Below, piece by piece: positions 652 to 30,590 of a DNA stretch of 38,459 bases. Below the pieces are notes generated by a model. The model ran no database searches, had not been told where the DNA came from, and saw only the letters and a list, made by a program, of their open reading frames with translations. The stretch comes from a virus (lineage: Duplodnaviria; Heunggongvirae; Uroviricota; Caudoviricetes), in the IMG/VR virus record IMGVR_UViG_2896607866_000012, positions 1-38,459 of that record. One strand, written 5' to 3'. Both the position numbers and the translations under genes were made by a program. Numbering within the stretch: the stretch's first letter is position 1; the number at the start of each line of letters is the position of its first letter.

Positions 652-654
652 GGA

Positions 655-2703: not shown

Positions 2704-3248
2704 GCCCCCATCGCTTTATCAGGTTTGTCGGTGTTACTGCCCTGACCGTTCTCTCTGTGACGATGCCCGTTATAGGCAAGCCGCATCGCTGACATGGTGG
2801 TGCCGCCGGAGTCGCACAGGTCTTTCACCTGTCCTGTCACTTCCAGGTCCATTTCAAAACGTGCCTTAGGCGCATTGCGAAACGTGATCGTTTTACCTGC
2901 ACCGTCCACCACGATCCCCTCCCGGGTCAGCGTCACAGACTGCCCCTGATCGTCATAGACAGCCACCTCACCCGTCTGCAGCCCTTTCAGGCGGTAGCGC
3001 CGGTCCGACACCGTAACAACCACCGCATGAGAACGGTCGCCATCCGGAAACAACACCACCGCTTCCGCACCGCTGTTTGCCCTTGCGGTAAAACCGTAGG
3101 GTTCAAGATGTTCAATCCCGGCTTTGGGTTCACCGGCAATCAGGGACACATCCACGGTCTGACATTTCGTGGCGGCACTGATGCTTTTCACCACTGCCCG
3201 CCCAATCAGGCCGAGGAGTTGTCGCTGCATGGCTTCAATCGTCCTCAT
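2700..3248 (-). CDS. baseplate assembly/spike protein (Mu gp45-like, P2 gpV-like)
   Basis: 182 aa ORF; synteny. Confidence 0.6.
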   Translation of the reverse strand: MRTIEAMQRQLLGLIGRAVVKSISAATKCQTVDVSLIAGEPKAGIEHLEPYGFTARANSGAEAVVLFPDGDRSHAVVVTVSDRRYRLKGLQTGEVAVYDDQGQSVTLTREGIVVDGAGKTITFRNAPKARFEMDLEVTGQVKDLCDSGGTTMSAMRLAYNGHRHRENGQGSNTDKPDKAMGA

Positions 3249-4327: not shown

Positions 4328-5694
4328 TGCACTGGCACCTTCAGAGGGATCACCGGCACAAAGCCGGGATGCGTAATGGCATTACGCCGGATAATGTCCG
4401 CGTCACGCGCCGCGTTATCAAACCAGGTCGCCGCCAGCACCAGCGCGGGTAAAACCTCATCCGGTGTGCGCTGAATGATCCGTGCAGACTGTTCAAGGCG
4501 CGTGTTGATATCCGCATTCAGATCTGCTTTCACCCGGCGCAGCGCCAGAAACAGCGCATCGCTGGTTGTACGGGACAACTCCTTATCAATTGCCGTATTC
4601 AGTGTGTCGCGAATGTCAGTCAGTTCTTCCCACGTCGGCAGGTCAACCGTGTTTTTCACCGCCGGTGCATTGTTCAGTGCCGGATGCGTGGCGGAAGGCC
4701 AGCAAGTGCTCTGCGCGGGTGTTGTTGCCTGCCCCACTGCGGCATTCTGCATCACCGCGGAAGTTGTTGGCGCAGGCAATCGGGTAACGGCATACGCCGC
4801 TTCGCTGATTGCGGTCGTACGAAGGGTGCTGGCAACCACGTTACGCTGCTGCGTCGCCGTGGCGGTGGTTTTACTGTCCGTTTTCCAGACGCCGCGCGGT
4901 TGCAGATCGCTGCCGAGGCTGACACCGGAAAGCGTTTTGATCATGGTGACCAGGTCGCTGGCGTTACCATAAAGGCGTTTCCCGGTACGCCACATTTTCT
5001 GCACCTGCTCAACGAAATTTTTGCCTGACGATGGCGGCGGCAGAAGTACCGAGATATCCCCCTGCAACAGCCTGGCGGCATCCGATACGGCAGAATCCAC
5101 CACTTTCATCGCATCAGAAACATACCCCAGCATTATGCTGGCATTACCGATAACGTCGTTCTGCACGAAATCCGCCACACCATCGATACTGAAACCGCTG
5201 AAGCTGTCACTGATGCAGTCATCCAGTGCAGAACAGGATGACATCAGCGTCTGCGCCGTCGCCGCACCTGATGTGGGGTAAGAGAGTTCTCCCGCTTCGA
5301 CAAACTTCAGGTCAAAGCGGACAATACGCCCTTCACTCTTCGATGTGCTGACCCGAACTTCTCCGTCAACACAGACTTTCAGCTCGCCGTATGTCGGATG
5401 GACAAGCGTGCCGGGACCGGGTTTATTCAGCGCGTCAATCAGGCGATCGCGCTGGTCAAAGCAGTCATCGCCCACCACATAAGCCGTGATGGACGGGCGG
5501 AAAGTGATTTTCCCCAGGTCTTCGGTATAGGGTTTGTCGCGGTTCGGGTATTCGTGCGTTTCCACACGACGACCGGTTCCCGCACTTTCTTCTTCAACCT
5601 TAAACGGCACACCGCGAAATGACGCGTCCTGAAGTCTGTCTTTCCACGTCATATAAACTCCGTACATAAAAAATCCCACCGGTGTGGGACTCAT
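4324..5694 (-). CDS. DNA circularisation protein N-like (Mu gp43-like)
   Basis: 456 aa ORF immediately downstream of tape measure gene. Confidence 0.6.
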   Translation of the reverse strand: MSPTPVGFFMYGVYMTWKDRLQDASFRGVPFKVEEESAGTGRRVETHEYPNRDKPYTEDLGKITFRPSITAYVVGDDCFDQRDRLIDALNKPGPGTLVHPTYGELKVCVDGEVRVSTSKSEGRIVRFDLKFVEAGELSYPTSGAATAQTLMSSCSALDDCISDSFSGFSIDGVADFVQNDVIGNASIMLGYVSDAMKVVDSAVSDAARLLQGDISVLLPPPSSGKNFVEQVQKMWRTGKRLYGNASDLVTMIKTLSGVSLGSDLQPRGVWKTDSKTTATATQQRNVVASTLRTTAISEAAYAVTRLPAPTTSAVMQNAAVGQATTPAQSTCWPSATHPALNNAPAVKNTVDLPTWEELTDIRDTLNTAIDKELSRTTSDALFLALRRVKADLNADINTRLEQSARIIQRTPDEVLPALVLAATWFDNAARDADIIRRNAITHPGFVPVIPLKVPVQ

Positions 5695-5712
5695 TAACAG
5701 ATTAATTTTTCA

Positions 5713-7548
5713 TTACCTGCCAAAGCGCGTATAGCCAACATCATGGCTGACATCAAAACCGCTGGATCGCGTTTCCATAACCCGCATACCCGGAGGCGAA
5801 TTCACAAAAGAGACCTTGATCTCACCATCAACTTTTGGCGCAGTAGCTTTATTAATCATGAAGGGATTCGGGCCTGTGGCACCGGAGGCGTTGTTTGACT
5901 GAGCCAGATCCACCACCGGATAAGGTGTGTATCCCCGTGCCGGTATTCCCGTCCCATAAGCATCATAAGCACCCGCGCCCCACTGCGCAGAGTTAATGGC
6001 ATCGACCGTGTCTCCGGAACTGTCGGTAAACCACTCAATAATTGGCTTCAGCTTGTCCCACATATCCTGAAACCACTTAACAACCGGCCCCCAGTGATTG
6101 ATCACCATCCCCAGCGGCGACCAGGCAAAAACTTTCTTAAGGAGTTCCCAGCCAGCCTCAAAATAAGGACCAATGGTTTCCCAGAGCTTCTTGAAATAAG
6201 GTCCGACAACATCCCAGTTAGTGATAATTAATCCCGCAGCCATGGCTATCGCCGTCGCAATCATGCCAATCGGCGTCATCGACATGATCCTGCTGACAAT
6301 GCTGATGGCACTGCCCACGCCCATCAATCCCAGTTTCAGAATCGCAAGACCGGCAGCAAGCCCGACGACGCCGCGAATAACCCGGGGATTTTCATCCGCA
6401 AACTTCGTGAATTTCTCCCCCAACTCCCCCAGCCACTGCGTGATGTTCTTAGCGTCACCAGAAAATGCGCCGCCAATAGCCGCAAGGCCGTTAGTTGCGG
6501 TCCCCGTCATTGCCTCCCACAGGTTGGACAGCGTACCAAGCTGAGCCTGAACACGTTTATTCAGGCTGGCCTGTTTATTCATCTTCTGCTGGATCTGATC
6601 GTAGCCATCCTTTCCTTTATCGATCAGCGCATTGACCACCTGAAGGGTTTCGGCATCATCACCAAATATTGCCTTAAGTACACCGGTTCGCTTAACGTCG
6701 GTCAGTTTTCGCAGCTTTGCCAGTTGCCTGAACATGTTATCAAGACCGCCAAAACTCCCTTTGCCATCAGTAAAATCGAGCTGTACCCCGAGTTTCTGGC
6801 GGGCCATGATTTTATTGACGTCCCTGATTTTCTTAACGCTTAATCCGGACTGGATAACTTTTCGCAGGGCATTACCTGCCGACTCCCCGTTCATCCCCAT
6901 CTGATCCATCATGACACTGATGGGGGCAAGACTCTGTGCAGCCTGAAGACCGTCCTTATTCACCATCTTCAGAACAGAGCTGGTTTTAGTGAAGAATGAC
7001 AGCATGTTGGTGTCGTCAACGCCCAGATAAAACGCCTTCTGAATTGTGTCGAACAGCCCCATCATGTCTTCTGAGGCCGTTCCGGTAGCATCCTGCATCT
7101 TTGCAGCAAACTCAGCAGCCGCTTCCGGTGTTTTTTTCAGTTGTACCGCAAGATAAGCTGTCGCTTTACCCACACCGCCAAGAATGTTTTCTGCCGGGAT
7201 CCCCTGACGCACCAGCATCTGCATCATGTTCTGGAAATCAGCCGTTGTACCGGGTAGCTGGTTACCCAGGCCAATAGCCAGTTTATTGATGTCCTGAAAG
7301 CTCTTTCCAACCTCGCCGTTCGCATCCATCATGGCGACTTTCAGCCCGGTGGCGGCGTTTTCCTGATCGGCATAAGATTTCAGGGAAAGCGTCAGACCCG
7401 CTGCCAGTCCGCCACCAAGCGCCAGCCCACCCTGTGACGCTTCTTCCGCCTGGCGTTTAAATCCCCGGATTTTCTTTTGCATTTTCGACAGCGCGGGAGA
7501 AAGCCTGTCGACACCGGTGATCAACGCCTTAAGCTCAAATTCAGCCAT
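5713..7548 (-). CDS. tail tape measure protein
   Basis: 611 aa ORF with Ala/Gly-rich and predicted helical/hydrophobic segments; preceded by frameshifted chaperone pair. Confidence 0.8.
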   Translation of the reverse strand: MAEFELKALITGVDRLSPALSKMQKKIRGFKRQAEEASQGGLALGGGLAAGLTLSLKSYADQENAATGLKVAMMDANGEVGKSFQDINKLAIGLGNQLPGTTADFQNMMQMLVRQGIPAENILGGVGKATAYLAVQLKKTPEAAAEFAAKMQDATGTASEDMMGLFDTIQKAFYLGVDDTNMLSFFTKTSSVLKMVNKDGLQAAQSLAPISVMMDQMGMNGESAGNALRKVIQSGLSVKKIRDVNKIMARQKLGVQLDFTDGKGSFGGLDNMFRQLAKLRKLTDVKRTGVLKAIFGDDAETLQVVNALIDKGKDGYDQIQQKMNKQASLNKRVQAQLGTLSNLWEAMTGTATNGLAAIGGAFSGDAKNITQWLGELGEKFTKFADENPRVIRGVVGLAAGLAILKLGLMGVGSAISIVSRIMSMTPIGMIATAIAMAAGLIITNWDVVGPYFKKLWETIGPYFEAGWELLKKVFAWSPLGMVINHWGPVVKWFQDMWDKLKPIIEWFTDSSGDTVDAINSAQWGAGAYDAYGTGIPARGYTPYPVVDLAQSNNASGATGPNPFMINKATAPKVDGEIKVSFVNSPPGMRVMETRSSGFDVSHDVGYTRFGR

Positions 7549-7723
7549 GTGTGCGTTTCTCCTGCTCTATCCTGTTTGCCTGACTGACCAGTAAGGGAAT
7601 TTCACTGATCGGCATATTCAGCAATTCGAAAGGATTAATGCGCCAGTAGCTGGCGCAATCAAAGAAGCGATCAGTAAGGTATTCAGCCGTCAGGCCTGGA
7701 GGAAAAAACCAGCCACAAGCCAC
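7541..7723 (-). CDS. tail assembly chaperone, -1 frame extension (G-T-like product)
   Basis: ORF in -1 frame overlapping the 3' end of 7690..7959; reached via slippery heptamer T_TTT_TTC; no credible own start (GTG). Confidence 0.5.
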   Translation of the reverse strand: MACGWFFPPGLTAEYLTDRFFDCASYWRINPFELLNMPISEIPLLVSQANRIEQEKRTHG

Positions 7724-7959
7724 GCCGCTGCATTCAGGTCTGCCGGAGACATCTGGTCGACAGAGCTTTGCGGCACTTTCGCCAGCCGCACAATATATTT
7801 CGACACCACATGCGCCAGAAGTCTGACGGACTCATCCTGATTCATCTGGTAGGGATACCCCAGCTCGCGGACATCCTTCCCGGTGGGCTCATCAAACTCC
7901 AGTACGGAGAGTGTCTCGCCATGAGCGGTAATCGGTTTCTTTAACTCAAGCTCTTTCAT
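7690..7959 (-). CDS. tail assembly chaperone
   Basis: 89 aa ORF between tail tube and tape measure; conserved position for chaperone. Confidence 0.55.
   Translation of the reverse strand: MKELELKKPITAHGETLSVLEFDEPTGKDVRELGYPYQMNQDESVRLLAHVVSKYIVRLAKVPQSSVDQMSPADLNAAAWLVAGFFLQA
7702..7708 (-). other. programmed -1 ribosomal frameshift slippery site (T_TTT_TTC on minus strand)
   Basis: Minus strand reads gct ggt ttt ttc ctc cag gcc tga in frame A and ...tgg ttt ttt cct cca... in frame B; heptamer in X_XXY_YYZ register. Confidence 0.5.
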
Positions 7960-8315
7960 TACTGGTAATCCCCTTCTTCACCGTGGAACTCAAGATCGAC
8001 CGTGCCTTCTTCGGCATTATGGTTCGCTTCGCCGTGCAGCCAGGCAGACGACAGTACATAGACCTGACCGTTCGCCAGCTCGGCAGTGATGGTCATCTCA
8101 TCAGACGAGGTGATTTTGCTCACCGGAAAATTCTTCGGCACCTTGAAGGTCCCTTTGACATAAGGCGCACGGTGAGTTTCCTTGCGGTCCACTGAACCGT
8201 CCAGGCCGATGATGTCATCATTGACCGTCCTGTTCATGGGCACCTCAATGCCGCCGGTCAGCGATAGCTGCTGACCGTCCATTTTGAAATAACAGGTTCC
8301 CCCGATACGGGCCAT
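7959..8315 (-). CDS. tail tube protein
   Basis: 118 aa ORF directly downstream of sheath gene. Confidence 0.65.
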   Translation of the reverse strand: MARIGGTCYFKMDGQQLSLTGGIEVPMNRTVNDDIIGLDGSVDRKETHRAPYVKGTFKVPKNFPVSKITSSDEMTITAELANGQVYVLSSAWLHGEANHNAEEGTVDLEFHGEEGDYQ

Positions 8316-9811
8316 TATGCAGACTCCTCTGAATACTGAAGACGGAACTGGTTAACCACGGCAAAGACACGCAACTGGTTAACATAGTCAGGCGGGAACA
8401 GCGTGTTCAGGCGGTTCGGATCGCTGGCATCACGCTCCACAACCAGGTACTGCTTAAACAGTTCGTAGTTTTCCACGATCCCCGCACGCTCAAGCTGACG
8501 GTAGGTTGCCAGCAGTTCCCCTTTGATCACCGCCGGGGTGACAATCGCCTGACCGGGACCAAAGCGGGTACCGTCGCTGGCAAGCTTGTGACGCCCGTAC
8601 TTACTGGTAATGACGGATTTCAGTTTGCGCAGAACATACGCACTGGTATGCAGCGTCTCGCTGTCGAGGTAGCTGTTATCCGCAACCCCGTAAGCATTTT
8701 TCCTGTACGTGGTGACATCACGCTGAATGCGCAGCACCCCGCTTTCGACATACGCCGTTGCCACGCCATGAAACAGCAGGGTCTGCTGTTCGGTCATCGT
8801 GAACCGTTTCCCCTTCGGCGCAGGCAGCATACCCACCAGCTCACCGGTCTGCGTGGGACATGCCGGATCGTTGCGGATAAACACCGCTGCGCGGGCGGTA
8901 CGGCTTGCCGCCAGCTCGTCGGCAGGCGTCTGGGTCTCTTTTTCGTACCCCGCCAGGGTGATGTGCTGCTGGTTAAACTGGTCACCTGCGGTCACCAGTT
9001 CTGACAGCGTGCCGATCTTTGCCGTATACACATGACCATACAGCTGACGCGCATAGCTCCAGCGACCGCTGGTATCGTTCATCTCGGTCACCAGCGTGTT
9101 AACGGAGGCCGTGTCGTTGAACGGCAGACCGATATAATCAAACGGCTCATCCGCCATTGCAGCCACCGCACCGGTGAGAACCGGAGCGCCCGTTCCGGCG
9201 GTCCCCGTCGCCACGGCAATCTGTACGCCCGCTGGCAGCACTTCGCCCCCACCAAAGCCGTAGTAATTGAGGCTGACAGGAATTTCATTCCCGCAAAGCC
9301 CCTTATGACGCGCGGTCAGTGTGACCACGCCTGCCGAAGATGAGGCCGTAAACGGCAGGGCCGGAACGGCATTGATGGCATCCTGGATACTGCTGGCAAT
9401 CGTCGTGACGTTATCGCCGTTGGTCACCGGTGCCTGCACGCGGGTACGTCCCACATAAACATTCACCGTGCCGGTTTCGGTTGCCGCCCCGGTCACCGTC
9501 AGCGTAACCGTTGCCGCCGCGCCTGTGGCTTCCGGAACGGCAATCACATACAGCTCACCAAACGGGTCGGTCTGGCGATAAGCCTCGACCATACGCGCCA
9601 GCTGACTTCCCGCACCACAAATCTGGCGTGCATAGTCTGCCGACGGCATTAGTACCAGACTGTTGGCAACAATCTCTGCACCGTTATTGGCATGACCAAT
9701 CAGCAGCGATGCTCCGCTGTCCTGTGCAGTATTCGCCGCCGAGTTATCCATTTCCGCATAAAACAACGGAACCAGCGTATTCGACGGAATGGTGTTAAAG
9801 CTTATCGTCAT
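8315..9811 (-). CDS. contractile tail sheath protein
   Basis: 498 aa ORF, size and position typical of Mu/P2-type sheath. Confidence 0.85.
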   Translation of the reverse strand: MTISFNTIPSNTLVPLFYAEMDNSAANTAQDSGASLLIGHANNGAEIVANSLVLMPSADYARQICGAGSQLARMVEAYRQTDPFGELYVIAVPEATGAAATVTLTVTGAATETGTVNVYVGRTRVQAPVTNGDNVTTIASSIQDAINAVPALPFTASSSAGVVTLTARHKGLCGNEIPVSLNYYGFGGGEVLPAGVQIAVATGTAGTGAPVLTGAVAAMADEPFDYIGLPFNDTASVNTLVTEMNDTSGRWSYARQLYGHVYTAKIGTLSELVTAGDQFNQQHITLAGYEKETQTPADELAASRTARAAVFIRNDPACPTQTGELVGMLPAPKGKRFTMTEQQTLLFHGVATAYVESGVLRIQRDVTTYRKNAYGVADNSYLDSETLHTSAYVLRKLKSVITSKYGRHKLASDGTRFGPGQAIVTPAVIKGELLATYRQLERAGIVENYELFKQYLVVERDASDPNRLNTLFPPDYVNQLRVFAVVNQFRLQYSEESA

Positions 9812-9973
9812 CGGTATTCACCTTTTTATTCACGCGCCGGATATCACCCGCTGCTTCACGGCGCAGCCAGTAGTTGTTCTCGTCAACATTTCGCCCTTCG
9901 GCGGGCAAAAGGTCGCCGCGGGCAGGGTCAGGAACTGACCGCCCTTTAACAGGTTTGACAAACATGAGGATCC

Positions 9974-10534
9974 TCAGGAAGGAAGGGTTATTTCGGTGTG
10001 ATGTTCGATATCGCCGTCAGGCCCGTTACCGGGCTCGAGATAATCAACATCAATCGCCAGCGTTTGCAGTTCATCCAGACTGTTCAGATCATCCTGCTGG
10101 CGGGTATCGTCTTCAGTCAGCTCGCTGATGACCGAAAAATCGAACTGATAAATCAGCTCATGACGATTCAGATCCAGCAGCGTGCCGCCGTCATAGGTAA
10201 TCGGGTTACCGCACGCCTCCGGGTTCCAGCCCAGCAGAGCCTTAAAGAGCATCTGCCGGACATCGTCCACCACATCATACGAGGCAAACTGACCGCGCTC
10301 ATCACGCCCGTTACTCAGTATGACAACCACGGAGAAACCCTCTTTCAGCTCCTGCCAGTAGTCGGTCTGGCTTTTGTTTTCTCCCGGAGAATCATCACCC
10401 GGTACAACATATGCCGCCGGGAGTTTCAGCTTTCCGACCTCCGGCAGATTTTTGAACTGGGCCGCGCCTGCAACCCGGTTTTCAAAATACGGACAGCGGG
10501 CACGCAGTGCAGCAATAACAGGCGTCAGTTTCAT
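9974..10534 (-). CDS. virion protein (Mu gp37-like, DUF1834)
   Basis: 186 aa acidic ORF upstream of sheath. Confidence 0.45.
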   Translation of the reverse strand: MKLTPVIAALRARCPYFENRVAGAAQFKNLPEVGKLKLPAAYVVPGDDSPGENKSQTDYWQELKEGFSVVVILSNGRDERGQFASYDVVDDVRQMLFKALLGWNPEACGNPITYDGGTLLDLNRHELIYQFDFSVISELTEDDTRQQDDLNSLDELQTLAIDVDYLEPGNGPDGDIEHHTEITLPS

Positions 10535-11037
10535 CTGTGTCGTCGCTCCGGCTTCAGTGATTTACGCAATTCCCGCGCCAGAAAATAGCGTGTCCAGCTG
10601 CGGTTCTTTTCAAGCGTTTCCACCATGAAGTTATTACGTGGAGCCAGTCGCCAGCCGCTGCCACCGGATGCACCACGATGATGGCTGCGACGACGCTTTG
10701 CCCCTCGCCTCACGCCATAGAACAAAAAAGCCGGATAAAAATCACCGGTGATACGGCGGTTTCCCTCTCCATTACGCTGGTTAGGGGCTATACGTGCCAT
10801 AAAACCAGGGCGATGTTTACTGGCTCTGGGTACCATGTAACCAATCAAACGAGCCAGGCGTCCGGTCTGATAACCGGGGTTTTCACCCGGTGCCGACCGC
10901 GCACGGCGCATCACCAGCCGACGGGCATCACGCATATGACGCTGACCAATCGTGACAAACGCCCGCCGGACACGGGCGCGGTTAAAGCGCATCTCCGCGG
11001 GCTGCTGAAAATCAACGTGCAAAAAGGAAGTCGTCAT
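10531..11037 (-). CDS. basic virion protein (tail completion / head-tail joining)
   Basis: 168 aa Arg-rich ORF; position between head-tail adaptor and gp37-like gene. Confidence 0.4.
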   Translation of the reverse strand: MTTSFLHVDFQQPAEMRFNRARVRRAFVTIGQRHMRDARRLVMRRARSAPGENPGYQTGRLARLIGYMVPRASKHRPGFMARIAPNQRNGEGNRRITGDFYPAFLFYGVRRGAKRRRSHHRGASGGSGWRLAPRNNFMVETLEKNRSWTRYFLARELRKSLKPERRHR

Positions 11038-11422
11038 TGTTGCCTCCGTGACTCTGCCTACATTCGCCCAGCTCCGTACACTCCAGCAGCAGAAAGCGCC
11101 GCGCCCCGTTCAGATCGCGCTGACGTTTCACCCGGTACACACTGTCACCGCAGACCACCTCATAATCAGCGGTGATCCCCCGGCGGTAACGAATGGTGAT
11201 GTAATGGGTGATGGCGTCCCCGGTCTGCGCGGTTTCCTGCCAGGTGGTGGCACTGGTCTGGATAACCTTCGCCCATGTCCGGAACGTAACCGGGTATTGA
11301 GGCTCCACGCCAAAGTTATCCGCGGGCATATCCACCCGCAGGCGGATCAGGACGCGTTTATTCAGTTCACCGGGGTCCGGCAGAATGTAGGTTGCGCTGG
11401 TCTGCGCCTGACGAATTTTCAT
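11012..11422 (-). CDS. head closure / head-tail adaptor protein
   Basis: 136 aa ORF downstream of gp6-like connector. Confidence 0.5.
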   Translation of the reverse strand: MKIRQAQTSATYILPDPGELNKRVLIRLRVDMPADNFGVEPQYPVTFRTWAKVIQTSATTWQETAQTGDAITHYITIRYRRGITADYEVVCGDSVYRVKRQRDLNGARRFLLLECTELGECRQSHGGNNDDFLFAR

Positions 11423-11742
11423 TGCGGAAAGTACCTGTACGGGCCGACAAGCCAGCCAAAACTCTGCGGCATGTCGAGTTTCTCCACTTCCGTAACCGAC
11501 GAGCGGTTTTCGTAAAAATGGCTGATAAGCATCAGCATCCCTAGACGAATATCATCCGGCAGGTGCAGCCCGTCCGGATCGCTGTCCGGAATGGTTTCAT
11601 CCGGTGCATAGAGCTTCCGGTTCAGATACGTTTCCGTCCGCTTTTGTGCCGCACATGCCAGCAGTTGCAGATGGTGGTCATCAGTATCGAAATCCTCATC
11701 CAGCCGGAGTTGGGCTTTAATCTCTTCCATTGTCAGAAGCAT
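11419..11742 (-). CDS. head-tail connector protein (gp6-like)
   Basis: 107 aa acidic ORF after capsid gene. Confidence 0.5.
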   Translation of the reverse strand: MLLTMEEIKAQLRLDEDFDTDDHHLQLLACAAQKRTETYLNRKLYAPDETIPDSDPDGLHLPDDIRLGMLMLISHFYENRSSVTEVEKLDMPQSFGWLVGPYRYFPQ

Positions 11743-11744
11743 AC

Positions 11745-11945
11745 TCAGCCCTCTTTACTGGTCGTGGCTTTTTTCTCTTTTGCCGCTTTACTGCTTTTTG
11801 CACTGATTCCGCGCTCTGCTAACCCGGCCTGAAGTGCAATCTCCTGCACCCGGGCAGGAAGCGCCCCGTCGTCATACTCACCGGCCTGAATGACCTCAAC
11901 ACGCATACCGTCCGGTGACCATTTCAGATCTTGTTTCAGGATCAT
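11745..11945 (-). CDS. hypothetical small protein
   Basis: 66 aa ORF between capsid and connector; Lys-rich C-terminus. Confidence 0.3.
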   Translation of the reverse strand: MILKQDLKWSPDGMRVEVIQAGEYDDGALPARVQEIALQAGLAERGISAKSSKAAKEKKATTSKEG

Positions 11946-11995
11946 GATTCTTTCACCTGTCAGAACAGGGGGCGCGGTTCCGCGCCCCTGAGTGA

Positions 11996-13201
11996 TTACG
12001 CCGCTGCAATCTTCAGCAGTTTGATGGCCTGCGAATCGACCAGCATGCCGCCGGTGCGCTTGGTGGTATAAAAACCGACAAACGGTTTATTGGTGTACGG
12101 ATCACGCAGAATGCGGGTACCGATACGGTCAACGATGGTGTAACCCCGCTTGAAGTTACCAAATGCAATAGCTTTCGCATCAGCGGCGATATCCGGCATC
12201 TGTTCGTTTTCAGCGATACCGTAACCCGCCAGAGAGGACGGTTGCCCCAGCTCCAGCCCCGGACGCCACAGATAGTTACCCTCGGTGTCTTTCAGCAGAC
12301 GGATGGCAAACAGGCTGTTGTTGTTCATCATGAACTTCGCGCCAGTGCGGTGTGCCTTACGCAGCGTGTAAATCAGTTTGATAATGGCGTCTGCGGTCAC
12401 CGTCGTCGCTTCACCGGATACAATATGCTGAAGTTTACCGAACGCACGAACCTTATCGGTTTCATCGGTGGATTCATACGCCAGGAACCCTTTTGGCTTC
12501 TTGGTGCCATCACCGGTGGTAAAGGCAATTTCTTCCTGTTCGGCAAATTCGGTCGCCAGCTCGCTGTTGATCCAGGCCTCCAGGTTGAAGAAGATATCAT
12601 CCAGCATTTTCTGAGTGGCCTGCGGGTTACCGTAGATTTCCCCCATGAAAGGTTCAATCAGTCCCAGTTTTGAGGTGGCAGTCTGGGAGCGCGCGTCAGT
12701 CTCGCCAACCCATCCGGAAGCCGTGCCGCCCAGATTCACCAGTTTTTTGTAGTCGGAACCGCCAACGGTGATCACCGTGGCTTCCTGGCGCATCACCACT
12801 TCATCTTTCAGCAGGGTGAGAATGTTGCGATCCAGTGCTTCCGGCACGGCATAGCCGCCGTCTTCATCGGTGCCCACCTGTAATGCCTTGCGCTCCAGAT
12901 CGCGCAGACCATCTTCACGGCCTTTACGCAGGAAGCCCACAAACGCTTCTTTATGCTCGGTGGCCAGTTTATTTTGCGCACCACCTGCCGGACGTTTCAG
13001 CTCAAGCAGCTCTTTTTCAAGATCGCTTTTGAGGTTTTCCAGCTCGCTGAGTTTCCCGTTCAGGGTTTCCACCTGCCCGGCAAGTTTGCCTTTTTCCTGC
13101 TCAATCGCATCCACGCGCTTGTCGTTCTTTGCTTTGAAGTCGTCAAACTTCTGCTGCAGCTCCTGCGCGACCTGTTCCACATCTTTAATATCAACCGCCA
13201 T
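11996..13201 (-). CDS. major capsid protein (HK97 fold)
   Basis: 401 aa ORF with N-terminal coiled-coil delta-like region; follows prohead protease and portal. Confidence 0.85.
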   Translation of the reverse strand: MAVDIKDVEQVAQELQQKFDDFKAKNDKRVDAIEQEKGKLAGQVETLNGKLSELENLKSDLEKELLELKRPAGGAQNKLATEHKEAFVGFLRKGREDGLRDLERKALQVGTDEDGGYAVPEALDRNILTLLKDEVVMRQEATVITVGGSDYKKLVNLGGTASGWVGETDARSQTATSKLGLIEPFMGEIYGNPQATQKMLDDIFFNLEAWINSELATEFAEQEEIAFTTGDGTKKPKGFLAYESTDETDKVRAFGKLQHIVSGEATTVTADAIIKLIYTLRKAHRTGAKFMMNNNSLFAIRLLKDTEGNYLWRPGLELGQPSSLAGYGIAENEQMPDIAADAKAIAFGNFKRGYTIVDRIGTRILRDPYTNKPFVGFYTTKRTGGMLVDSQAIKLLKIAAA

Positions 13202-13215
13202 CGTATTTCTCCTGA

Positions 13216-13902
13216 TTAGAAGTTCAGATTTTTCAGTGCATTCAGTACAGAGCCCACATCCTCAGCGTCGCGCAGGGACAGTGCGCCATAGCCCCCGGCC
13301 ATGAATGCTTTGGCCTGGGTACGGGAGAGTCCGACATCACGCAGGACTCTTTCGATTTTTTTCTGTTCGGGGATTTCACCGCGGGCCAGCGCGTTCTTGA
13401 CGTCGCTGATCCGCGCCTCGTCGTTAGACGGGAACGTCACCAGACTGACTTCCCAGAGGTCGATTTCTTTCAGCAGAAAGGCTTCTTTACTCCGGTCGTA
13501 TTCCCAGTCTTTCAGGACGTACCCAATAGAAAGGCCGGTTAACGAACCGGCCTTCATGTGTGCATGTGCGCGTTTTGCGAGGGGATCATCATCAATGAGC
13601 AACCGTCCCCTGACGTAAAGCCCGACATCGTCTTCCTTCATTTCGGTATAAACACCGATGGGTTCATCCATGCGGTGCTGCCAGAGCAGCGCAGGTAACG
13701 CTTTTCTGTCACTCCACGCCCGCAGGGAAGCAGCAAATGCCCCGGACATCACCACATCATCGTGGCTGTCCTTTACACCAAAGACGGAGCCATACCCTTC
13801 AAACTTACCGGAGTCACTGACAGATTTCAGACTCAGCGGTACATCAAGACGTTGTTTCGTCTGTATTGGCGTTATCCTTCTGCTTACCGGCTTTACTGCC
13901 AT
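13216..13902 (-). CDS. prohead serine protease (HK97 family)
   Basis: 228 aa ORF between portal and capsid; 5' end overlaps portal 3' end so true start may be internal. Confidence 0.75.
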   Translation of the reverse strand: MAVKPVSRRITPIQTKQRLDVPLSLKSVSDSGKFEGYGSVFGVKDSHDDVVMSGAFAASLRAWSDRKALPALLWQHRMDEPIGVYTEMKEDDVGLYVRGRLLIDDDPLAKRAHAHMKAGSLTGLSIGYVLKDWEYDRSKEAFLLKEIDLWEVSLVTFPSNDEARISDVKNALARGEIPEQKKIERVLRDVGLSRTQAKAFMAGGYGALSLRDAEDVGSVLNALKNLNF

Positions 13903-15085
13903 CGGAGGGTTTCGTGGTCATGTTCATCGGTGTGAGATAGACATCACCACCGGGACGCGGATTCATATCTTCCAGGTCGCGGCAGTCATTGGGAGAGTAA
14001 ATTCCCCAGTTGATCCCGGTGGCGTAGGCTTCAAAACGGGACTTCATATCCCCGCGCAGTAACGCCCCGGCGTTAAATTTGGCGTAATAAATGCCCAGCT
14101 TACTTTTTCGTACCAGTCCGGTGTTGATCCGCTGCTCAATGCGGGTCAGATACGGCACCAGTGAATAGTTGATAAATCCCAGCCCCAGCTCTTCGATATT
14201 GTTGAAGGTGGCGCGATCGGTGTTCTGCACCATATGCAATGGCACCCGGAACAGACGACAGATTTCTTCAAGCTGAAACTTGCGGGTTTCCAGGAACTGG
14301 CTGTCCTCGGCGTTCAATGCCATCGACTTCCAGTCCAGCCCCATCTCAAGGATCATCGGGCGGTGAGCATTGCCAAGCCCGGTGTGACGCTCCTCAAAAT
14401 CTTTCTTCAGGCGCTCATAAGCCTGATCCGACAGCGTCTGTTCTGTACGCAACACACCGGACGTCACCGCGCCATTGCTGAACAGTCTGGCACCGTGTTC
14501 TTCAGTCGCTGCTGCCAGCGATATTGCCTCGCGGGCATAGGCGACGGGATTCAGTCCCACCAGACCGTCCAGCGTCAGCGTGCGCACATGCCAGATATCC
14601 TCCTGGGTCAGCACATCCGTTGAGCCGTCCGGGAATGTGACCTGATAGACCGGCTCCCAGCTACTGTTAAGCTTCGGTACCACACAGCCGGGATCGACGG
14701 ACAGCAGTTCAGCCACTTCACCAAATGCTTTCACTTTGTAGGCGTAAAAGTTGCCCCGCAGGCACAGACAGGTGACCACCAGCTCCCAGAACTCCTGCGG
14801 CGTCATATAGCCATTAGGATGCGAGGAGATCAGCTTATGCAGACGTTCGCCAGTGGCTCTCTGCTTCAGACCGCCATTCAGGTGATACAGGTTGCAGGGC
14901 AACATCCCGACCGACTCCGCCAGCACCCTAACACAGGAAAAAACCGCCGTCAGTCGCATGGCCCGCTGACTGCTGATCTGCTTTCCGGTATAGGTGTCGT
15001 AGGACAACCCGATAGCATCCGCCAGCTCTGCTGGCGTGGTCACCGGTGCGTCACTTTTTCGTTGAAATAATCCCGAAAAGAACAC
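13844..15085 (-). CDS. portal protein (HK97 family)
   Basis: 413 aa ORF downstream of terminase large subunit. Confidence 0.85.
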
Positions 15086-15277: not shown

Positions 15278-17011
15278 TTAAAGCGAGCGGATCCCGTAGG
15301 ACTCAATGTGGTCAGACAGCGTGTCTTCTTTCTCGTACAGCATGGCTCTGCCAACCGCCATAATCAGCGCAACTGCACCATCGATTTTGTTTTCCGCCTG
15401 CTCTTTGACGGGCTTCACCACATCATCGTTACCCGGAATGGTTTTTCCGACCACGTTGCCGATACACCAGGTCATGATGGGATTGCCATCATGATGAAAG
15501 CGCCCCGATTCAATTGCCGCTTCCAGCTCTTTCATCGGGTCGGACATGTTGGTGTAGTTCTGAATGATGGTGACGGTGTTCAGGTCTTCATCAGCAAGGT
15601 CATGTGACAGCCCGGTCGCCCCGAAGGGGTCGATGGGTGACTCGCTGACCGGGCTGATTTTGTTCGCCGCTTTGGCCTCTTCGAGGATGTAGCGATAATC
15701 CACCTCTGCACCATCGGTAACGGTCAGGACGCCCATTTCCACCCATTTCTGAAAGCGTTCGGCTGTCCGGCGATCTTCATTTTTCTCGACGCTATACACC
15801 GCGTCATACGGTACCCAGAAACGCGGGGCCACACTGTAGTAATGCGTTTTACCGTCAATCTCGCGGGTATAAAGTCGCGCCATGCTGTTCATATCCAGCT
15901 TACGCTCCAGGTCAAAGGCCAGAATGCACGGCTGCCCCTCGAACTGCTCAAGGGTCAGTGATTTATCCTCGCAGCTCTGCCAGCTCACCAGGTTGAAATA
16001 CGCCGAACGCGCCGACACCTAGATATTGAGGTGTTTTGTTTTAAAGACGTTTGCCAGACGGGCGTTATTTTTCGCACGCTGCTGCTGACTTAACAAAAAT
16101 TCGCGATAAACCGACACGCCAATATTTGGATTGGCTTTTTCCAGCACCTGCGGGTCGGTCCAGTCGTCACCTTCATCAACGGTATAGATGATCCCGAACA
16201 GTTCATCGTTAGGCACCGAGCCGTTGAGCATCTCGATGACTTCCCGCCGCTTGTCGTAGCACGGCCCCTCAATGTTGTACCCGGCGGTGGTGATAGCCCA
16301 CATCAGTGGCTGACGTCGCGCCCCCATCCCGGTAAGCATCGTGGTGTAAAGCGCATCGGTGGCGTGCTCGTGATATTCATCCACCACCGCACAGTGGGGT
16401 GATGAACCATCACCGGGGTTACCGATCAGCGGTTCAAACCGCGCGCCATCCTCCGGACGATTCATGTTTGAGGCGTTAACCTCAATCCCGAACGCTTCCG
16501 TCAGCATGGGGGGGCGTTTACACATCAGTCGTGCCGGACGAAAGACTTCCCATGCCTGCTTCTCCGTCGTGGCACCGGAATACACTTCCGCGCCGAACTC
16601 GTTATCACAGGCAAAACAATACAGGGCGACACCGGCAGAGATTGCCGATTTGCCGTTCTTACGGGGGATTTCGGTATACACCTCACGGAAGCGGCGCAGC
16701 CGGGAGCCTTTATTGACCCAGCCAAACGCGCAGCAGATCACAAAGAGCTGCCACGGCTCCAGCGTGATGGGCATCCGTTTGAATGCCCACTCACCCTTGG
16801 TGTGTGGCAACAGCTGAATAAATTTCGCGGCCCGTTCAGCCAGGTCCTTGTCGAAGCGGTAACGAAACGACTTACTTTTTTCCGCCATCAGGTCATCAAG
16901 ATGGCGCTGGCAGGCCTGAATCACAAACTGGCAGGCCACAATCTTTCCGCGCACGACATCACGGGCATACTGATTGGCAGCATTTACGTTGGGGTAAGAT
17001 TTCCGGCTCAT
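15278..17011 (-). pseudogene. terminase large subunit interrupted by in-frame TAG (ATPase part 16022..17011, nuclease part 15278..16018)
   Basis: Two adjacent same-frame ORFs separated only by plus cta at 16019..16021 (minus TAG); together 578 codons. Confidence 0.75.
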
Positions 17012-17502
17012 GATTCGATGATTTTCAGAAACGGGTTAGTGGCTTTCTTCTGCCCCGCCAGGCCAATCAGACGCTGGCGGCTGCTGGGGTCGAGTCCGAG
17101 CATTGCCCCCGTACTGCTCATCTCGGACTCCTGTTCTTTTTTGGCGGTCAGCTCCGGATTTTTGACCATACCGCCCATTGCACCGGTGATGGTGTTGCCC
17201 TGTCTGGCAATATTTTTCACGGCACGTCGCCAGAACTCGTAGGCCACGCACCACCGCTCAAGCACCGCGAGGTCAGTCACGCACAGCAGGCCCTGACCGC
17301 AGAGTTCTTTAGTTGTCAGTTGCCACATGATCGTAGCGAGAGGGAGATCTTCTTCAGCGAACCACTCCGGTGGCTCAACACCTTTGATGGGCGTAAAAAC
17401 AGGTTCATCTTTATTCAGGGCTCGCTTGCCGGGGTTTCCGGCCAGCGCCTTGCGCGCCGTTGGCTTGGGGCGACGCCCGGAACGCCCCGCCGTTCCAGCC
17501 AT
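17008..17502 (-). CDS. terminase small subunit (P27 family-like)
   Basis: ORF upstream of terL; ATG at 17502 preceded by AGGAG; track start 17511 is GTG. Confidence 0.7.
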
Positions 17503-17628
17503 ATGCGGCACTCCTGGTTAAATTTCATTTTTCGCGGGTATAAAAAAACGATGGGGCGGGCAGTCCGGAAGGCGCGCGGTCGCAGAGATTTGACCTCCCC
17601 CTCCCCAGTCTGATGATGACATTAATTA

Positions 17629-18018
17629 TCACTTGAGCCGCTCACGCGCGGTCTTCGCTGCGTGACACGACCAGCACAGGCTTTCAAGGTTGCTGTCTTC
17701 ATCAGTACCGCCGTGGGCCTTCGCCTTGATGTGGTCCACGCAGGACGCCTGCTTCACTATCGCCTGCCGTAGATGGTTCTGACACAGCCCTTTGTCGCGC
17801 TTAAGTATCCGCTCCCGGATGACTTCCCACTTTGTTCCGTATCCTCGCTGCTGCCGTGATTGACCAGGCTTGTAGGACTTCCAGCCTTCACCTTTGTGAT
17901 TTTCACAGTAGCCAGATGGGTCTGTTGTGGTGTTGCGACAGCCGCGAACACGGCAAGCCTTTGGTGTGCGCGGTGGCATATTCACTCCCCAAAAAACGTA
18001 TAGCATTATCGCAGACAC
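17629..18018 (-). CDS. HNH endonuclease
   Basis: 129 aa ORF with Cys/His-rich motifs (CxxC, HxxxH pattern); canonical position upstream of terS in HK97-like cos phages. Confidence 0.8.
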   Translation of the reverse strand: MSAIMLYVFWGVNMPPRTPKACRVRGCRNTTTDPSGYCENHKGEGWKSYKPGQSRQQRGYGTKWEVIRERILKRDKGLCQNHLRQAIVKQASCVDHIKAKAHGGTDEDSNLESLCWSCHAAKTARERLK

Positions 18019-18042
18019 TTAATGAATGCCTGCTGAATGCCA

Positions 18043-18246
18043 CTAATCGTCGAGTTGCAATACACCGTGCTCAAGTGACTCTGAGTAAGCGATCAGCCCT
18101 GTGTATTCAGGGATAATCTCGCCATCATCCGCTTCGAATTCCGGGATTGTACCAGTGGTGATGGTGTATTGGGGCTGACCATCTTCTTTCGCGAATGCTG
18201 CTAGGTCTTCAATCTGCTTAGCTGTAAGAACTACTGTCATGCTCAT
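18043..18246 (-). CDS. hypothetical acidic protein
   Basis: 67 aa ORF rich in Asp/Glu; no family recognised. Confidence 0.35.
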   Translation of the reverse strand: MSMTVVLTAKQIEDLAAFAKEDGQPQYTITTGTIPEFEADDGEIIPEYTGLIAYSESLEHGVLQLDD

Positions 18247-18304
18247 ACCTCAGTTGTTAAAAAGCCCCGCTATTGCGAGGCTATGATTGACTAAAGTGAT
18301 GCTG

Positions 18305-18580
18305 TCAGGTGTGGGTCCAAATGAATTTAACAATCCCAATAATGCTAGCCAGAACGCCAAAACCAAAAATAAATTGACCACATACCCCTATGATTCCCGA
18401 TGCAATGGCACCGGCATTTGTCTGAGCATTTTCGTTTATGCTCGCCCCCACTAGATACATAATCAAACCAACTATGAGAGATGCGATAATCCAATGTTCC
18501 ACTGCTAATACAATTACAATGCTCAAAATATCTGCTAAACCATCACTATGACCACTCACTGCATATCCTTGCTTTGACAT
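18305..18580 (-). CDS. hypothetical membrane protein
   Basis: 91 aa ORF with about three predicted TM helices in a visibly AT-rich stretch; TATAAT-like element about 25 nt upstream of ATG; no obvious SD. Confidence 0.4.
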   Translation of the reverse strand: MSKQGYAVSGHSDGLADILSIVIVLAVEHWIIASLIVGLIMYLVGASINENAQTNAGAIASGIIGVCGQFIFGFGVLASIIGIVKFIWTHT

Positions 18581-18646
18581 TTGAAAAATTCATCACTGGA
18601 TTATAATTGTTTACACCCTTCATAGTCGTTCGAATATGATAAAAAA

Positions 18647-19183
18647 TCAATTGTGGGGGATAGCGTTATTTGACTCTCTCAACGAGTCGTAAATACGTTC
18701 ACACGTCATCCCGGCGGTGTAGCGTTCGTCAGCGATTCCAGCATAACGTTTAGCTTCTGCTGCAATATCTCCGAGCATGTCGGCGAACATTCCGGCGTCG
18801 GCGTCGGTTGTTTTGCTTCGGACGGCAGCGGCAAGATCAGCGGTGTGCTTTGCGGCGTCCAGGCGTGCGGCAAGCTTTGTTGCTTCGGTACGCAACTGGC
18901 TAACAGTGGCAGACAGGCCAGCAGCAGTGGCAGCAGATTTAGCGGCTTGTGCTTGTGCATCTTTTACAGCCTCATCACGGGCAATTATGCGCCCTTGTTC
19001 AATCCAGCGTGCGGCAGTCTGCGCGTTCGCTTCCTGTGAAGATTCCATGCTATTGTGGTCAGCCCACTTCTTTTGCCAGCCCCGCTCACTCCAGATGTTC
19101 CCGGCAAAAAATGCACCAGCCAACATCAGCAAAACAATGATTGTTTTCCACCGCGCCTGAACAAAAGCAAAGACCGCTGTCAT
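18647..19183 (-). CDS. Rz-like i-spanin
   Basis: 178 aa ORF with N-terminal TM and Ala/Gln-rich coiled coil, downstream of endolysin, with embedded Rz1-like ORF. Confidence 0.65.
18706..18960 (-). CDS. Rz1-like o-spanin lipoprotein
   Basis: ORF embedded in +1 frame inside Rz; lipobox LLASC and Pro-rich C-terminus; true start probably downstream of annotated first Met. Confidence 0.55.
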
Positions 19184-19797
19184 ACCAGCAACGCCGCCCG
19201 CGCTTTGTTATAACGACTATTTCTGTCAGCCAGTCCATTCTGGCCACCGTTGATGATCTGCGTTACACGGACAACATCACCTGAATACATCAGACAACCA
19301 CGTAATGTGAAATACCATGCAGCAGAACGGGCTGCATGTTTCTCCTGTGTCAGCAACTCTGGTGTGCTGATCAGATCCAACTTCAGCGCCGCACCGCATT
19401 TGGCGTAGTTCTCGCGGCCGGTGATTTGAAGCAGGCCACGACCGCGATATTTCCAGCCGTCACCCTGGCTGTTATTCCCCATGCGGTCACCATAAACCAG
19501 ATTGGCTATTTGCGGCTGGTGGGCTACCTGCTTACCATCGACACGCCCCAGCATTTCACACTGATAAGGCGTCAGGCGTTTACTAAAGGTTTTCTTCAGC
19601 CCGTCTACCGAGTAGTTGAAGCTTTCCACCAGCGAGGTAAAACCAGCAGATTCATGCCCAACTTGTGCAATGAACATGGCCTGATCGTTAACTGCTGTGA
19701 TTCCAAACTCTTTCATTGCAGCATCAATGTGCGGAAACCAGCGCGCAGCCAGCCCGGCGCTAATACCAGCCGCCTTTTGAAATAATTGTTGGTTCAT
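19180..19797 (-). CDS. endolysin, glycoside hydrolase family 19 type
   Basis: 205 aa ORF with GH19-like motifs; lysis cassette position. Confidence 0.8.
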
Positions 19798-20078
19798 TAG
19801 TGCCTCAGATGATCAACCAGACGTGCAACGTTGCCTCTGACGGCCACCAGCACGGAAAGAAAAATAGTGTTCGCCACGATAATGGGCCATGAGGAATGGG
19901 GATAAATCCCACAGAGATAGGCCAACGGAACAGCACTGTATGTAACAGTAATCAGCCAGGCTAAACGTGAAACCCAAGGACGATGCCGCGAATCACCACG
20001 ACGATAAAACATCAGAGTAATAACAACACAAGCACATAACAGCGCATTTATAGTTGCTGTCGGGTCATTTAGCTCCAC
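19797..20078 (-). CDS. holin-like / lysis accessory membrane protein
   Basis: 93 aa ORF with predicted TM helices immediately upstream of endolysin. Confidence 0.45.
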   Translation of the reverse strand: MELNDPTATINALLCACVVITLMFYRRGDSRHRPWVSRLAWLITVTYSAVPLAYLCGIYPHSSWPIIVANTIFLSVLVAVRGNVARLVDHLRH

Positions 20079-20451
20079 CTGAACCTCCCCGGCGCGTTAT
20101 GAGCGCCACCAGCGAGCCGATATCCTGATTATTCAGGAACGTCAGGATTTTAACGGCTAAAGCAGAGACGATTACGGCACCAATAGCATCCAGCGGTTTA
20201 TCACTGTATCCGGTCAAGTGCGCCAGCTTGGAGCCAACCAACCCAGAGCAAAGGATCCCGGCAATATATGACACGATAAAATATGCCAGTCGGCGCGATG
20301 CACTCAGATCTGCTGCTGTTGCTATGTAGAATACAGCCCCTGCAAATGCGTCAAATACAACGCCGTAATCAGTTCCGGTCAGCAGTCCATAAACACTGGC
20401 ACCCGTCAGGGCACCACCAGCCAGCCCAGTACCGGAAATCGGATCGGACAT
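20065..20451 (-). CDS. putative holin
   Basis: 128 aa Gly/Ala-rich membrane ORF at start of lysis cassette. Confidence 0.5.
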   Translation of the reverse strand: MSDPISGTGLAGGALTGASVYGLLTGTDYGVVFDAFAGAVFYIATAADLSASRRLAYFIVSYIAGILCSGLVGSKLAHLTGYSDKPLDAIGAVIVSALAVKILTFLNNQDIGSLVALITRRGGSGGAK

Positions 20452-20530
20452 TTAGCCCCCTCTTAATTGCTGTTGGTCCTCTCAGATATGAGGGGAAGGG
20501 ATCTTAATGACAGTCTATTTATTATTTCAG

Positions 20531-20788
20531 TCAAACACTACCCTGTTGATGATTTCTCAGAAGCGAACTTGACTCCCAGGGGAAACTCAACTTTCCGTTA
20601 AAACCACCAGCAGACACTCGTTCAATTTCCACAGAAATATCACTGAGCCGTTCTTCAAGCTCTGCTTTTTCTTTTACCAGACGGTTATAGCGGCTTAGAT
20701 GAAGCTTTTGCTGCTCCAGCCAGTCTTCAAGCTGTTCAACAGTCATACCAGGGTTAAAAAAATATGGCTGCTGCTTTTCGCCCTGCAT
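20531..20788 (-). CDS. hypothetical coiled-coil protein (85 aa from internal ATG)
   Basis: ATG at 20788 preceded by GGAGG; the track's longer N-terminus (to 20857) overlaps a terminator hairpin and is rejected. Confidence 0.3.
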   Translation of the reverse strand: MQGEKQQPYFFNPGMTVEQLEDWLEQQKLHLSRYNRLVKEKAELEERLSDISVEIERVSAGGFNGKLSFPWESSSLLRNHQQGSV

Positions 20789-20800
20789 TATTGACCTCCA

Positions 20801-20828
20801 GAAAAGCAAAAACCCCGCCGAAGCGAGG
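20801..20828 (-). terminator. rho-independent terminator (tR'-like) downstream of Q
   Basis: Minus strand CCUCGC-UUCG-GCGGGG (one G-U pair) followed by UUUUUGCUUUUC. Confidence 0.45.
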
Positions 20829-20881
20829 TTTGTTATGATTTCGTTAACGGCAGACATACAAAGCCCATAGTTAGGAGAATC

Positions 20882-21704: not shown

Positions 21705-22385
21705 TTACGCCAGTACGCCTATTGCCAGCGCACGATCGATAAAACGAAATATCAGCTCCAGCAGGGAGCCATACTTCTCTTCAAATGCCACGGTATCCGC
21801 ATGCAGCTCGTCGTGATGCTTTCTGCACAAAGGCAACACAAAGAGGTCATGCGCTTTTGTACCCATTCCCCCCTGACCGTGGCCTATCAGGTGGTGAGGA
21901 TCATCAGCAGGCTTTCCACAACATGCGCACGGCTGTGTCTTAACCCAGCGCGTGTACTTTTCATTAACCCAGCGGCGACGTTTTGGGCGTAACATAAAAG
22001 ACTCCGGCGACTCCGGATCCACTTTCAGCGCCAGCACCTTTTTCGCCTTATCCTGGATGATGCTGGTGGCAGGAACCGAAGGCACAAGGTCACTTTCCCG
22101 GGTGACAGACGGCACAACAGGATTCGGTAATCTCAGTGCCTTACGGGCTGCGCTTTCCGGTAAGGCATCCGCCAGATCATTACGAACCAGCCACCAGCAC
22201 AGTTCCGGCATTGTCACAACGTGACTGTCATCAAAACCGAGATCCCGACGCACAACAGACAACACCCAGCGGGCACAGTTATCCGTTGCCATTGATTCCA
22301 GCCGTTCCGTGAACTGATCGCGCAGCTGGTTATCGCAGTGCCAGCACAGACGGATTGCGCCCGGAGCGTGTCGCATTGTTGTCAT
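21705..22385 (-). CDS. DUF968-like protein with C-terminal HNH-type motif
   Basis: 226 aa ORF; C-terminal CxxC...HH...H motifs; nin-region position. Confidence 0.5.
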   Translation of the reverse strand: MTTMRHAPGAIRLCWHCDNQLRDQFTERLESMATDNCARWVLSVVRRDLGFDDSHVVTMPELCWWLVRNDLADALPESAARKALRLPNPVVPSVTRESDLVPSVPATSIIQDKAKKVLALKVDPESPESFMLRPKRRRWVNEKYTRWVKTQPCACCGKPADDPHHLIGHGQGGMGTKAHDLFVLPLCRKHHDELHADTVAFEEKYGSLLELIFRFIDRALAIGVLA

Positions 22386-22415
22386 GTTCTCGCTGTGCCA
22401 GTCGGAATGAGGCCA

Positions 22416-22700
22416 CTAGCAGCCTTTTTCACGAAGTAACCAGCTTTCAAGACATTCCACGCCACCAGCACGACGGATCACTGCCTCATTGCGGAACACG
22501 GCCCGAACAGCAGGATCATCCGCCAGCGGTTGTGATGCCGCCGGAACGGCACCACTGGCAAAAGATGAATAACGTTCTGGCTCAGGCTCCAGCAGGACAC
22601 GCCCCTGCATAAACAGGGGCATCAGCTCTGAACCGGGTCTGAACAATACGATCCCCATACGCGGGGCAATTTCAGGGGTCAGTAATGCTCTCACGGTCAC
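22416..22700 (-). CDS. hypothetical protein
   Basis: 94 aa ORF in operon orientation; no family recognised. Confidence 0.25.
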   Translation of the reverse strand: MTVRALLTPEIAPRMGIVLFRPGSELMPLFMQGRVLLEPEPERYSSFASGAVPAASQPLADDPAVRAVFRNEAVIRRAGGVECLESWLLREKGC

Positions 22701-29302: not shown

Positions 29303-29421
29303 TTTTTTCAGGTAACTCGTCGGCATCGCAGAAACAACAACGCTCGATCTGAAGTGGCACACTGAATTTGGCCACCTGAACAGAGGTGATATGCTCACCT
29401 CAGAACAACACAGGTGCTCCA

Positions 29422-30590
<1,169 letters not shown>

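Follow-up and report, generated by a model that had tools for sequence, protein, structure and literature searches.

Introduction

The large terminases closest to the gene studied here are those of the phages SfV, SfII, SfI and SfIV and of related E. coli prophages, which are HK97-type TerL proteins accompanied by a P27-family TerS and an HNH endonuclease. The terL of the window, by which we mean the whole 38,459-nucleotide stretch of viral DNA analysed, is alike in length to these genes and 96.5–98.3% identical to them in nucleotide sequence; moreover, the order HNH-terS-terL-ymfR-portal-protease-capsid and all the catalytic residues are common to the SfV group and the window. On the other hand, the window gene differs from the whole group by a TAG in place of TGG at codon 331 and by the private changes T167P, A369E, T404A and P479T. 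The only solved homologue that could be detected by sequence is the HK97 TerL (PDB 6Z6D; Fung et al. 2022, PMC9410871), with E = 2.9e-24 over residues 112–556. This protein is only distantly related and has an arginine, Arg270, at the position in question, so that the conservation of Trp331 is a feature of the SfV group and does not extend to the whole family.

Defective, grounded prophages inactivated by insertion sequences (IS) and point mutations are well known in Shigella and E. coli, as exemplified by the cryptic prophages of strain K-12, and cryptic serotype-converting prophages have been discussed in the S. flexneri phage literature. In these elements, the retention of the prophage is usually explained by the gtr serotype-conversion module. 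The window resembles grounded prophages in its thrW-proA site, in the damage to int and xis, in the presence of several internal IS and in its scattered nonsense mutations. It differs from them since it keeps about 27 kb of full-length late, lysis and replication genes, and since, within 10 kb, an IS1 and the host lutABC genes were found in the place of a gtr module.

Amber mutations in terminase genes are also familiar from the laboratory, in which lambda A-am and T4 17-am were obtained. The likeness to the window is that a single amber falls in a packaging gene, and by analogy the expected phenotype would be proheads and tails without packaged DNA; in fact, T4 gene 16 ambers accumulate empty proheads (PMC3012670). 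By contrast with the laboratory mutants, the amber of the window is natural, is fixed in a bacterial lineage, was not maintained on a suppressor host and was followed by further decay.

Results and Discussion

An amber codon interrupts a single terL reading frame

The minus strand from 17011 to 15278 reads, in continuous translation, as one frame of 577 codons (1734 nt), in which codon 331 is the sole internal stop (Table 1). The upstream ORF, 16019..17011 with the stop included, gives a product of 330 aa with the C-terminal end FKTKHLNI and is closed by the TAG; the downstream one opens in the same frame with GTG and gives 246 aa, starting with VSARSAYF. The original prediction, according to which the two halves of terL share one frame and are separated only by TAG, was therefore exact in both coordinates and peptide context. 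The whole 1734 nt aligned without gaps, at 97.2–98.3% identity, to the 577-codon terL genes of vB_EcoM-689R6, SfII and E. coli prophages, while the terL of SfV could be aligned over nt 1–1653 at 96.5%, its 3′ end being divergent. A 577-codon terL that aligns to the window gene is present in about 1100 complete E. coli genomes. The gap-free alignment to uninterrupted genes shows that the two ORFs are one interrupted gene and not a chance pair.

Table 1. Features of the window discussed in the text, with positions counted from its first letter.
Feature	Position	Strand	Remarks
Portal gene	13844..15085	-	Intact, 413 aa
terL 3′ fragment, codons 332–577 + TAA	15278..16018	-	RNase-H-like nuclease residues; ORF list, Pfam
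Amber TAG replacing ancestral TGG (Trp331)	16021..16019	-	CTA on the plus strand; from alignment to intact relatives
terL 5′ fragment, codons 1–330	16022..17011	-	ATPase core + lid; ORF list, Pfam TerL_ATPase
terL codon 167, CCC (Pro)	16511..16513	-	ACN (Thr) in all relatives
terL 21-nt segment, gene nt 75–95	16917..16937	-	Between two 10-bp direct repeats GGCCTGCCAG; kept in the window
terS, P27-family small terminase	17008..17511	-	Intact, 164 aa from ATG 17502; PF05119
HNH endonuclease gene	17629..18018	-	Upstream of terS; intact; PF01844; HK97-type packaging-module arrangement
Second amber, CAG>TAG (Gln to stop)	22416..22418	-	In the DUF968 (YdfU, SfV orf45) gene 21705..22700
IS3-family element, ~1.25 kb	29350..30598	+	ORFs 29386..29721 and 29718..30590; HTH_Tnp_1 and rve domains (L024/L025 gene call)
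IS1 (insA/insB), 768 bp	31242..32009	-	Splits the yfdP/orf32 homologue
IS66-family element	33008..35755	+	In the yfdQ/orf31 homologue; HTH_Tnp_1, TnpB_IS66, split DDE_Tnp_IS66 transposase
IS3-family element	36268..37530	-	orfA 100 aa, orfB 272 aa
Truncated integrase	37506..38459	+	SfV Int residues 80–387 at 98%

The codon from which the stop derives was read in the relatives. All four intact DNA references, namely SfV, SfII, vB_EcoM-689R6 and E. coli GPEC1405, have TGG at codon 331, and the tryptophan is also present in 11 other complete proteins of E. coli, Citrobacter and Salmonella, the most distant of them 87.5% identical. Thus, the mutated base is the one at position 16020, G>A on the gene strand and C>T on the plus strand. 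Of a 71-nt probe centred on codon 331, the TGG version was matched exactly by 995 complete-genome records of E. coli, whereas none of the 1366 matching records contained the exact TAG version. It had been proposed that the stop is one base away from a sense codon, and an alignment of both halves to intact terminases had been suggested to identify it: the codon was TGG, the first of the candidates listed, in every relative aligned.

A programmed or suppressor-dependent stop should be conserved among homologues, but it was present in 0 of 1366 records and the aligned phage homologues all have TGG. Similarly, we found no split homologue, the protein being 577 aa long in every relative examined and the stop conserved in none of them. 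An exact-sequence look-up of the repaired 577-aa protein (W331) gave no entry in the collection searched.

The same stop is found in independent S. flexneri assemblies

The window was 100% identical to CP024470.1 wherever compared (20,993 + 8,954 bases), and corresponds to positions 4061590–4100048 of that record. CP024470 is the genome of Shigella flexneri 71-2783, serotype 3a, which was obtained by PacBio and Illumina sequencing at 200–500x with an optical-map check (PMC5754485; PMC9455713). Both products of the interrupted gene have been deposited as exact sequences, the 330-aa one as EIQ14033.1 (S. flexneri 2850-71) and the 246-aa one as EIQ14034.1 (2850-71) and SUI47756.1 (an NCTC-prefixed deposit); the latter shows the TAG, since the 246-aa fragment is called only when the stop is present. 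The exact 330-aa product was found on 9 contigs and the 246-aa product on at least 24. In addition, codon 331 was TAG in 11 out of 11 S. flexneri-type loci (L005–L007 and L016–L023). Exact protein matches to the N-fragment, to the C-fragment or to the portal had led to these loci, some of which overlap on the same contigs; their sources are the complete genome, drafts from NCBI and several SRA assemblies of Logan. In two other NCBI drafts (L021 and L023) no protein is called across the terL locus, which is consistent with an annotation as pseudogene.

A sequencing or assembly error at base 16020 had been listed among the possible origins of the stop, and has nothing in its favour apart from the fact that the difference is of one base only. 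The same TAG was observed across technologies and laboratories, in the hybrid genome with optical map, in the NCTC deposit, in the 2850-71 draft, in the other drafts and in several SRA-derived assemblies. The presence of the codon in independently assembled S. flexneri copies therefore tells against an error, whose probability we regard as negligible.

The stop falls between the ATPase motifs and the nuclease triad

On the repaired protein, Pfam recognised TerL_ATPase (PF03354) at residues 86–256 and TerL_nuclease (PF20441) at residues 268–558, with scores of 91.3 and 118.3 bits, respectively (cut-offs about 24). As the gene is encoded, the frame is broken at codon 331 and the two domains are not on one polypeptide; the gene is thus a terL pseudogene and not a functional member of the HK97/SfV-type large terminases. 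Codon 331 is 63 residues into the Pfam nuclease model and 36 residues upstream of the first catalytic aspartate, D367. The description of the two pieces as an ATPase half and a nuclease half was fair in general terms, whereas the stop does not coincide with the boundary of the Pfam models, but lies inside that of the nuclease.

The motifs were mapped by alignment to HK97 TerL (6Z6D) and by the residues named in PMC9410871. The N-fragment carries the Walker A K118/K121, the Walker B D211/E212 and the C-motif T242, which correspond to K57/K60, D153/E154 and T186 of HK97, while the nuclease triad D367, D461 and D544, equivalent to D302/D388/D471 of HK97, is entirely downstream of the stop. In this alignment the catalytic residues of both halves are all retained. 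Trp331 is aligned with HK97 Arg270, 32 residues ahead of HK97 D302 and, as judged from the same alignment, the stop would lie in the lid/linker region.

Since the break falls between the ATPase motifs and the aspartate triad, and since the TAG and the GTG of the second ORF are adjacent, it could be imagined that translation stops at the TAG and restarts at the adjoining GTG, the two halves forming a working motor. The GTG at 16018 already encoded Val332 in the ancestral gene and is not a dedicated start, and no Shine-Dalgarno was found upstream of it (+1.7 kcal/mol, against −5.5 to −10.9 for the neighbouring genes). The native ATG of terL likewise lacks a Shine-Dalgarno and overlaps the terS stop as ATGA (17008..17011), which indicates that terL is translationally coupled to terS. 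Some re-initiation giving a C-terminal fragment is conceivable, because the GTG adjoins the TAG and terL's own start, devoid of a Shine-Dalgarno, is coupled to terS. However, a motor made of two polypeptides has other obstacles. It has been reported that T4 gp17 split at the linker keeps the ATPase and nuclease activities and loses all DNA translocation (PMC3012670), and that in HK97 TerL a β-strand just past the lid, together with a short linker, joins the lid to a hairpin of the nuclease (PMC9410871), which is the region with which codon 331 is aligned. With no split counterpart among the relatives, and with a decay that continued after the split, as described below, we consider a functional two-polypeptide terminase extremely unlikely.

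Decay of terL continued after the stop

The comparison of the S. flexneri haplotypes allowed us to order the lesions of terL. One TAG-bearing haplotype (L017) still has ACC (Thr) at codon 167; thus, T167P arose after the inactivation of the gene. In a sub-lineage described as common (L016/L020), which also has the TAG and Pro167, the 21-nt segment listed in Table 1 is deleted in frame, with the loss of 7 codons, and L021 carries a further 1-nt insertion near the terL 3′ end. The haplotypes are therefore nested, from the TAG alone (L017), to the TAG with T167P (the window and most others), to the addition of the 21-nt deletion and, finally, of the 1-nt insertion. From this nesting of later lesions on the TAG we conclude that terL went on decaying; the TAG is the oldest lesion seen in the gene, with later changes in both halves.

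The private changes T167P, W331*, A369E, T404A and P479T are all at positions that are invariant in 15 relatives (to 87.5% identity), and the private synonymous changes in terL are at most seven. Five private amino-acid changes against no more than seven synonymous ones fit a relaxed constraint, in a sample that is small and has too few within-clade substitutions to measure selection.

Beyond the interrupted gene itself, these observations have a practical side. The 'terminase' ORFs EIQ14033.1 and EIQ14034.1 are best regarded as the two parts of a single pseudogene, and the nested haplotypes (TAG, T167P and the 21-nt deletion) might be used to mark lineages of S. flexneri.

Lesions in the rest of the prophage

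The state of the other genes was surveyed by searching the window for every annotated protein of SfV and vB_EcoM-689R6, together with nucleotide comparisons, and the IS families were assigned by Pfam. A second point nonsense mutation, again an amber, divides the DUF968 gene in two, the resulting ORFs being 94 aa and 226 aa long, a split that is common to other S. flexneri assemblies. The apparent stop in the yfdQ/orf31 homologue, which we evaluated as a third nonsense mutation, was rejected, since the tblastn alignment runs there into the IS66-family insertion.

The four insertions are in the early-left and immunity-proximal region. SfV is contiguous (25170/25172) where the window has the first IS3-family element. 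At the second one, orf29, orf28 and xis are missing, while orf30 has been stripped of its 3′ part and int of 79 codons at its 5′ end; the element stands in their place. The int gene is adjoined, outside the window, by proA, proB, phoE and crl, so this is the thrW-proA attachment locus of the SfV-family phages, occupied by an element with an SfV-type integrase next to proA.

The opposite end was read in genomes that match the window completely or almost so (L010–L012). Immediately outside the window on its left side (10560..11561 in L010/L011/L012), the gene for tail-fibre assembly (tfa) is cut at about residue 78 by a 768-bp IS1, 99.9–100% identical to the IS1 inside the window, and the host lutABC (ykgEFG) genes follow directly. 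SfV GtrA, GtrB and GtrV had no match in the window, nor in the 10 kb past the tail-fibre end in these genomes; the O-antigen modification cluster gtrA-gtrB-gtr(type), which in this family sits between the tail-fibre genes and attP, was thus not found at this site. This arrangement suggests that an IS1-mediated deletion removed the end of the prophage, that is, the rest of tfa and presumably gtr and attR, along with the chromosomal DNA between thrW and ykgE.

In the same genomes, a Mu-type transposase gene (PF09299) and an HTH_35 gene were observed at 16343..18689, about 6 kb past the prophage remnant and flanked by another IS1; this region may be the end of an SfMu-like prophage.

With the start of int and the whole of xis missing, the prophage is unable to excise. 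The element is thus grounded, and at this site the serotype-conversion module has been lost.

The fact that both point nonsense mutations of the prophage are amber could be taken as a hint that full-length TerL is still made, by a supE- or supF-type tRNA of the host or by readthrough, and a suppressible stop had indeed been considered when the locus was first described. We also evaluated whether the two ambers are a sign of evolution in a suppressor host, and we rejected it: with this codon usage, 66% of the transition nonsense mutations lead to TAG, and two TAG out of two are expected 43% of the time (P = 0.43). Furthermore, no tRNA gene is present in the 38.5-kb window, the stop is conserved in no homologue, more lesions accumulated in terL after the TAG, and the prophage cannot excise in any case. 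A leaky or suppressed amber is therefore very unlikely.

Neutral decay of a grounded prophage as the most probable explanation

Shigella is a genus noted for IS expansion and for the accumulation of pseudogenes. We propose, with a probability of about 0.92, that the stop is a genuine and vertically inherited TGG->TAG nonsense mutation of Trp331, which belongs to the neutral decay of a grounded myovirus prophage of the SfV/SfII family at thrW-proA, rather than being a regulatory or domesticated trait. Translation would stop after 330 residues, leaving a fragment with the ATPase and the lid but without the RNase-H-like nuclease domain, and both cos cleavage and the translocation of DNA into the proheads would be lost. 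The TAG would be just one among several lesions that accumulated without selection in a prophage now unable to excise, and its place in time with respect to the IS insertions is an inferred one. The first of the alternatives in the original prediction, a nonsense mutation fitting the other signs of decay, is therefore the one we favour, on account of the nested later lesions, the IS elements, the truncated int and the second amber. A terL pseudogene in a defective S. flexneri prophage is of an already known kind, and both fragments were already in the public databases.

On the other hand, a considerable part of the element is well preserved. The genes terS, HNH, those from Q to replication, and all those from the tail-fibre gene (1..651) to the portal are full length, and the head and tail genes at 1..13902 are stop-free when compared with SfV or 689R6. 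The synteny of the packaging module, HNH, terS, terL and portal, is maintained, TerS being 99–100% identical to those of SfV and 689R6. That the head, tail and lysis genes are full length might indicate that they were retained, and a recent grounding would account for it equally well.

The former reading would imply that the loss of terL was favoured, for instance because it stops a lethal induction while the structural and lysis genes are kept, or because the 330-aa fragment is a dominant-negative decoy against the terminase ring of superinfecting phages of the SfV family or of satellites. The integrity of the head, tail and lysis genes in the window speaks for such a domestication; for the decoy, the N-fragment retains the Walker A, Walker B and C-motif residues, and the antiterminator Q has 99% identity to that of SfV, so that an incoming relative could turn on the late operon. 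However, the N-fragment is still decaying within the clade, first by T167P at an invariant position and then by the 7-codon deletion, and induction would already be non-productive with tfa truncated and int and xis destroyed. Moreover, terL accounts for 6.3% of the transition-nonsense target, in keeping with its share of the coding bases (6.6%), and has been struck no more often than its size predicts; since it represents only about 6% of the nonsense target, an amber in it needs no selective explanation. No satellite-like genes were seen in the window. It had been suggested that the loss of packaging, when the late region is intact in other respects, is what would be expected of a domesticated or satellite-exploited prophage, but the element is broadly wrecked, in int, in xis, by four IS, by the second amber and in tfa, and no gtr was found in the 10 kb past tfa. 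We therefore regard a selected knockout as very unlikely. Even a little less probable is the specific case in which the 330-aa fragment, expressed through the Q of the invader, would co-assemble with an SfV-family terminase and poison its motor, acting in superinfection exclusion as an anti-phage decoy.

The neutral decay of the grounded prophage remains the reading that we adopt, and the locus is in this respect a clean example of prophage decay in S. flexneri after immobilisation by IS, with one step pinned to a single base, the Trp331 amber. It is also of interest for annotation and prophage prediction, as a 38-kb region that looks near-complete yet cannot excise, would not package its DNA and has an incomplete tfa.

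Mosaic modules in the late region

Portal, protease and capsid genes (11996..15085) were 98% identical to those of vB_EcoM-689R6, and had only 25–27% identity or no match to those of SfV, while the terminase and tail genes were about 97–99% identical to both phages. Thus, the head module is of another lineage than that of SfV, since it matches 689R6 and barely SfV. The lysis cassette (18043..20857) consists of genes for Phage_holin_8, Phage_holin_3_7, a Glyco_hydro_19 endolysin and a DUF2514 protein, and looks intact; it has no counterpart in SfV or vB_EcoM-689R6, which both have the lambda-type S/R/Rz set, and is thus a mosaic module swap.
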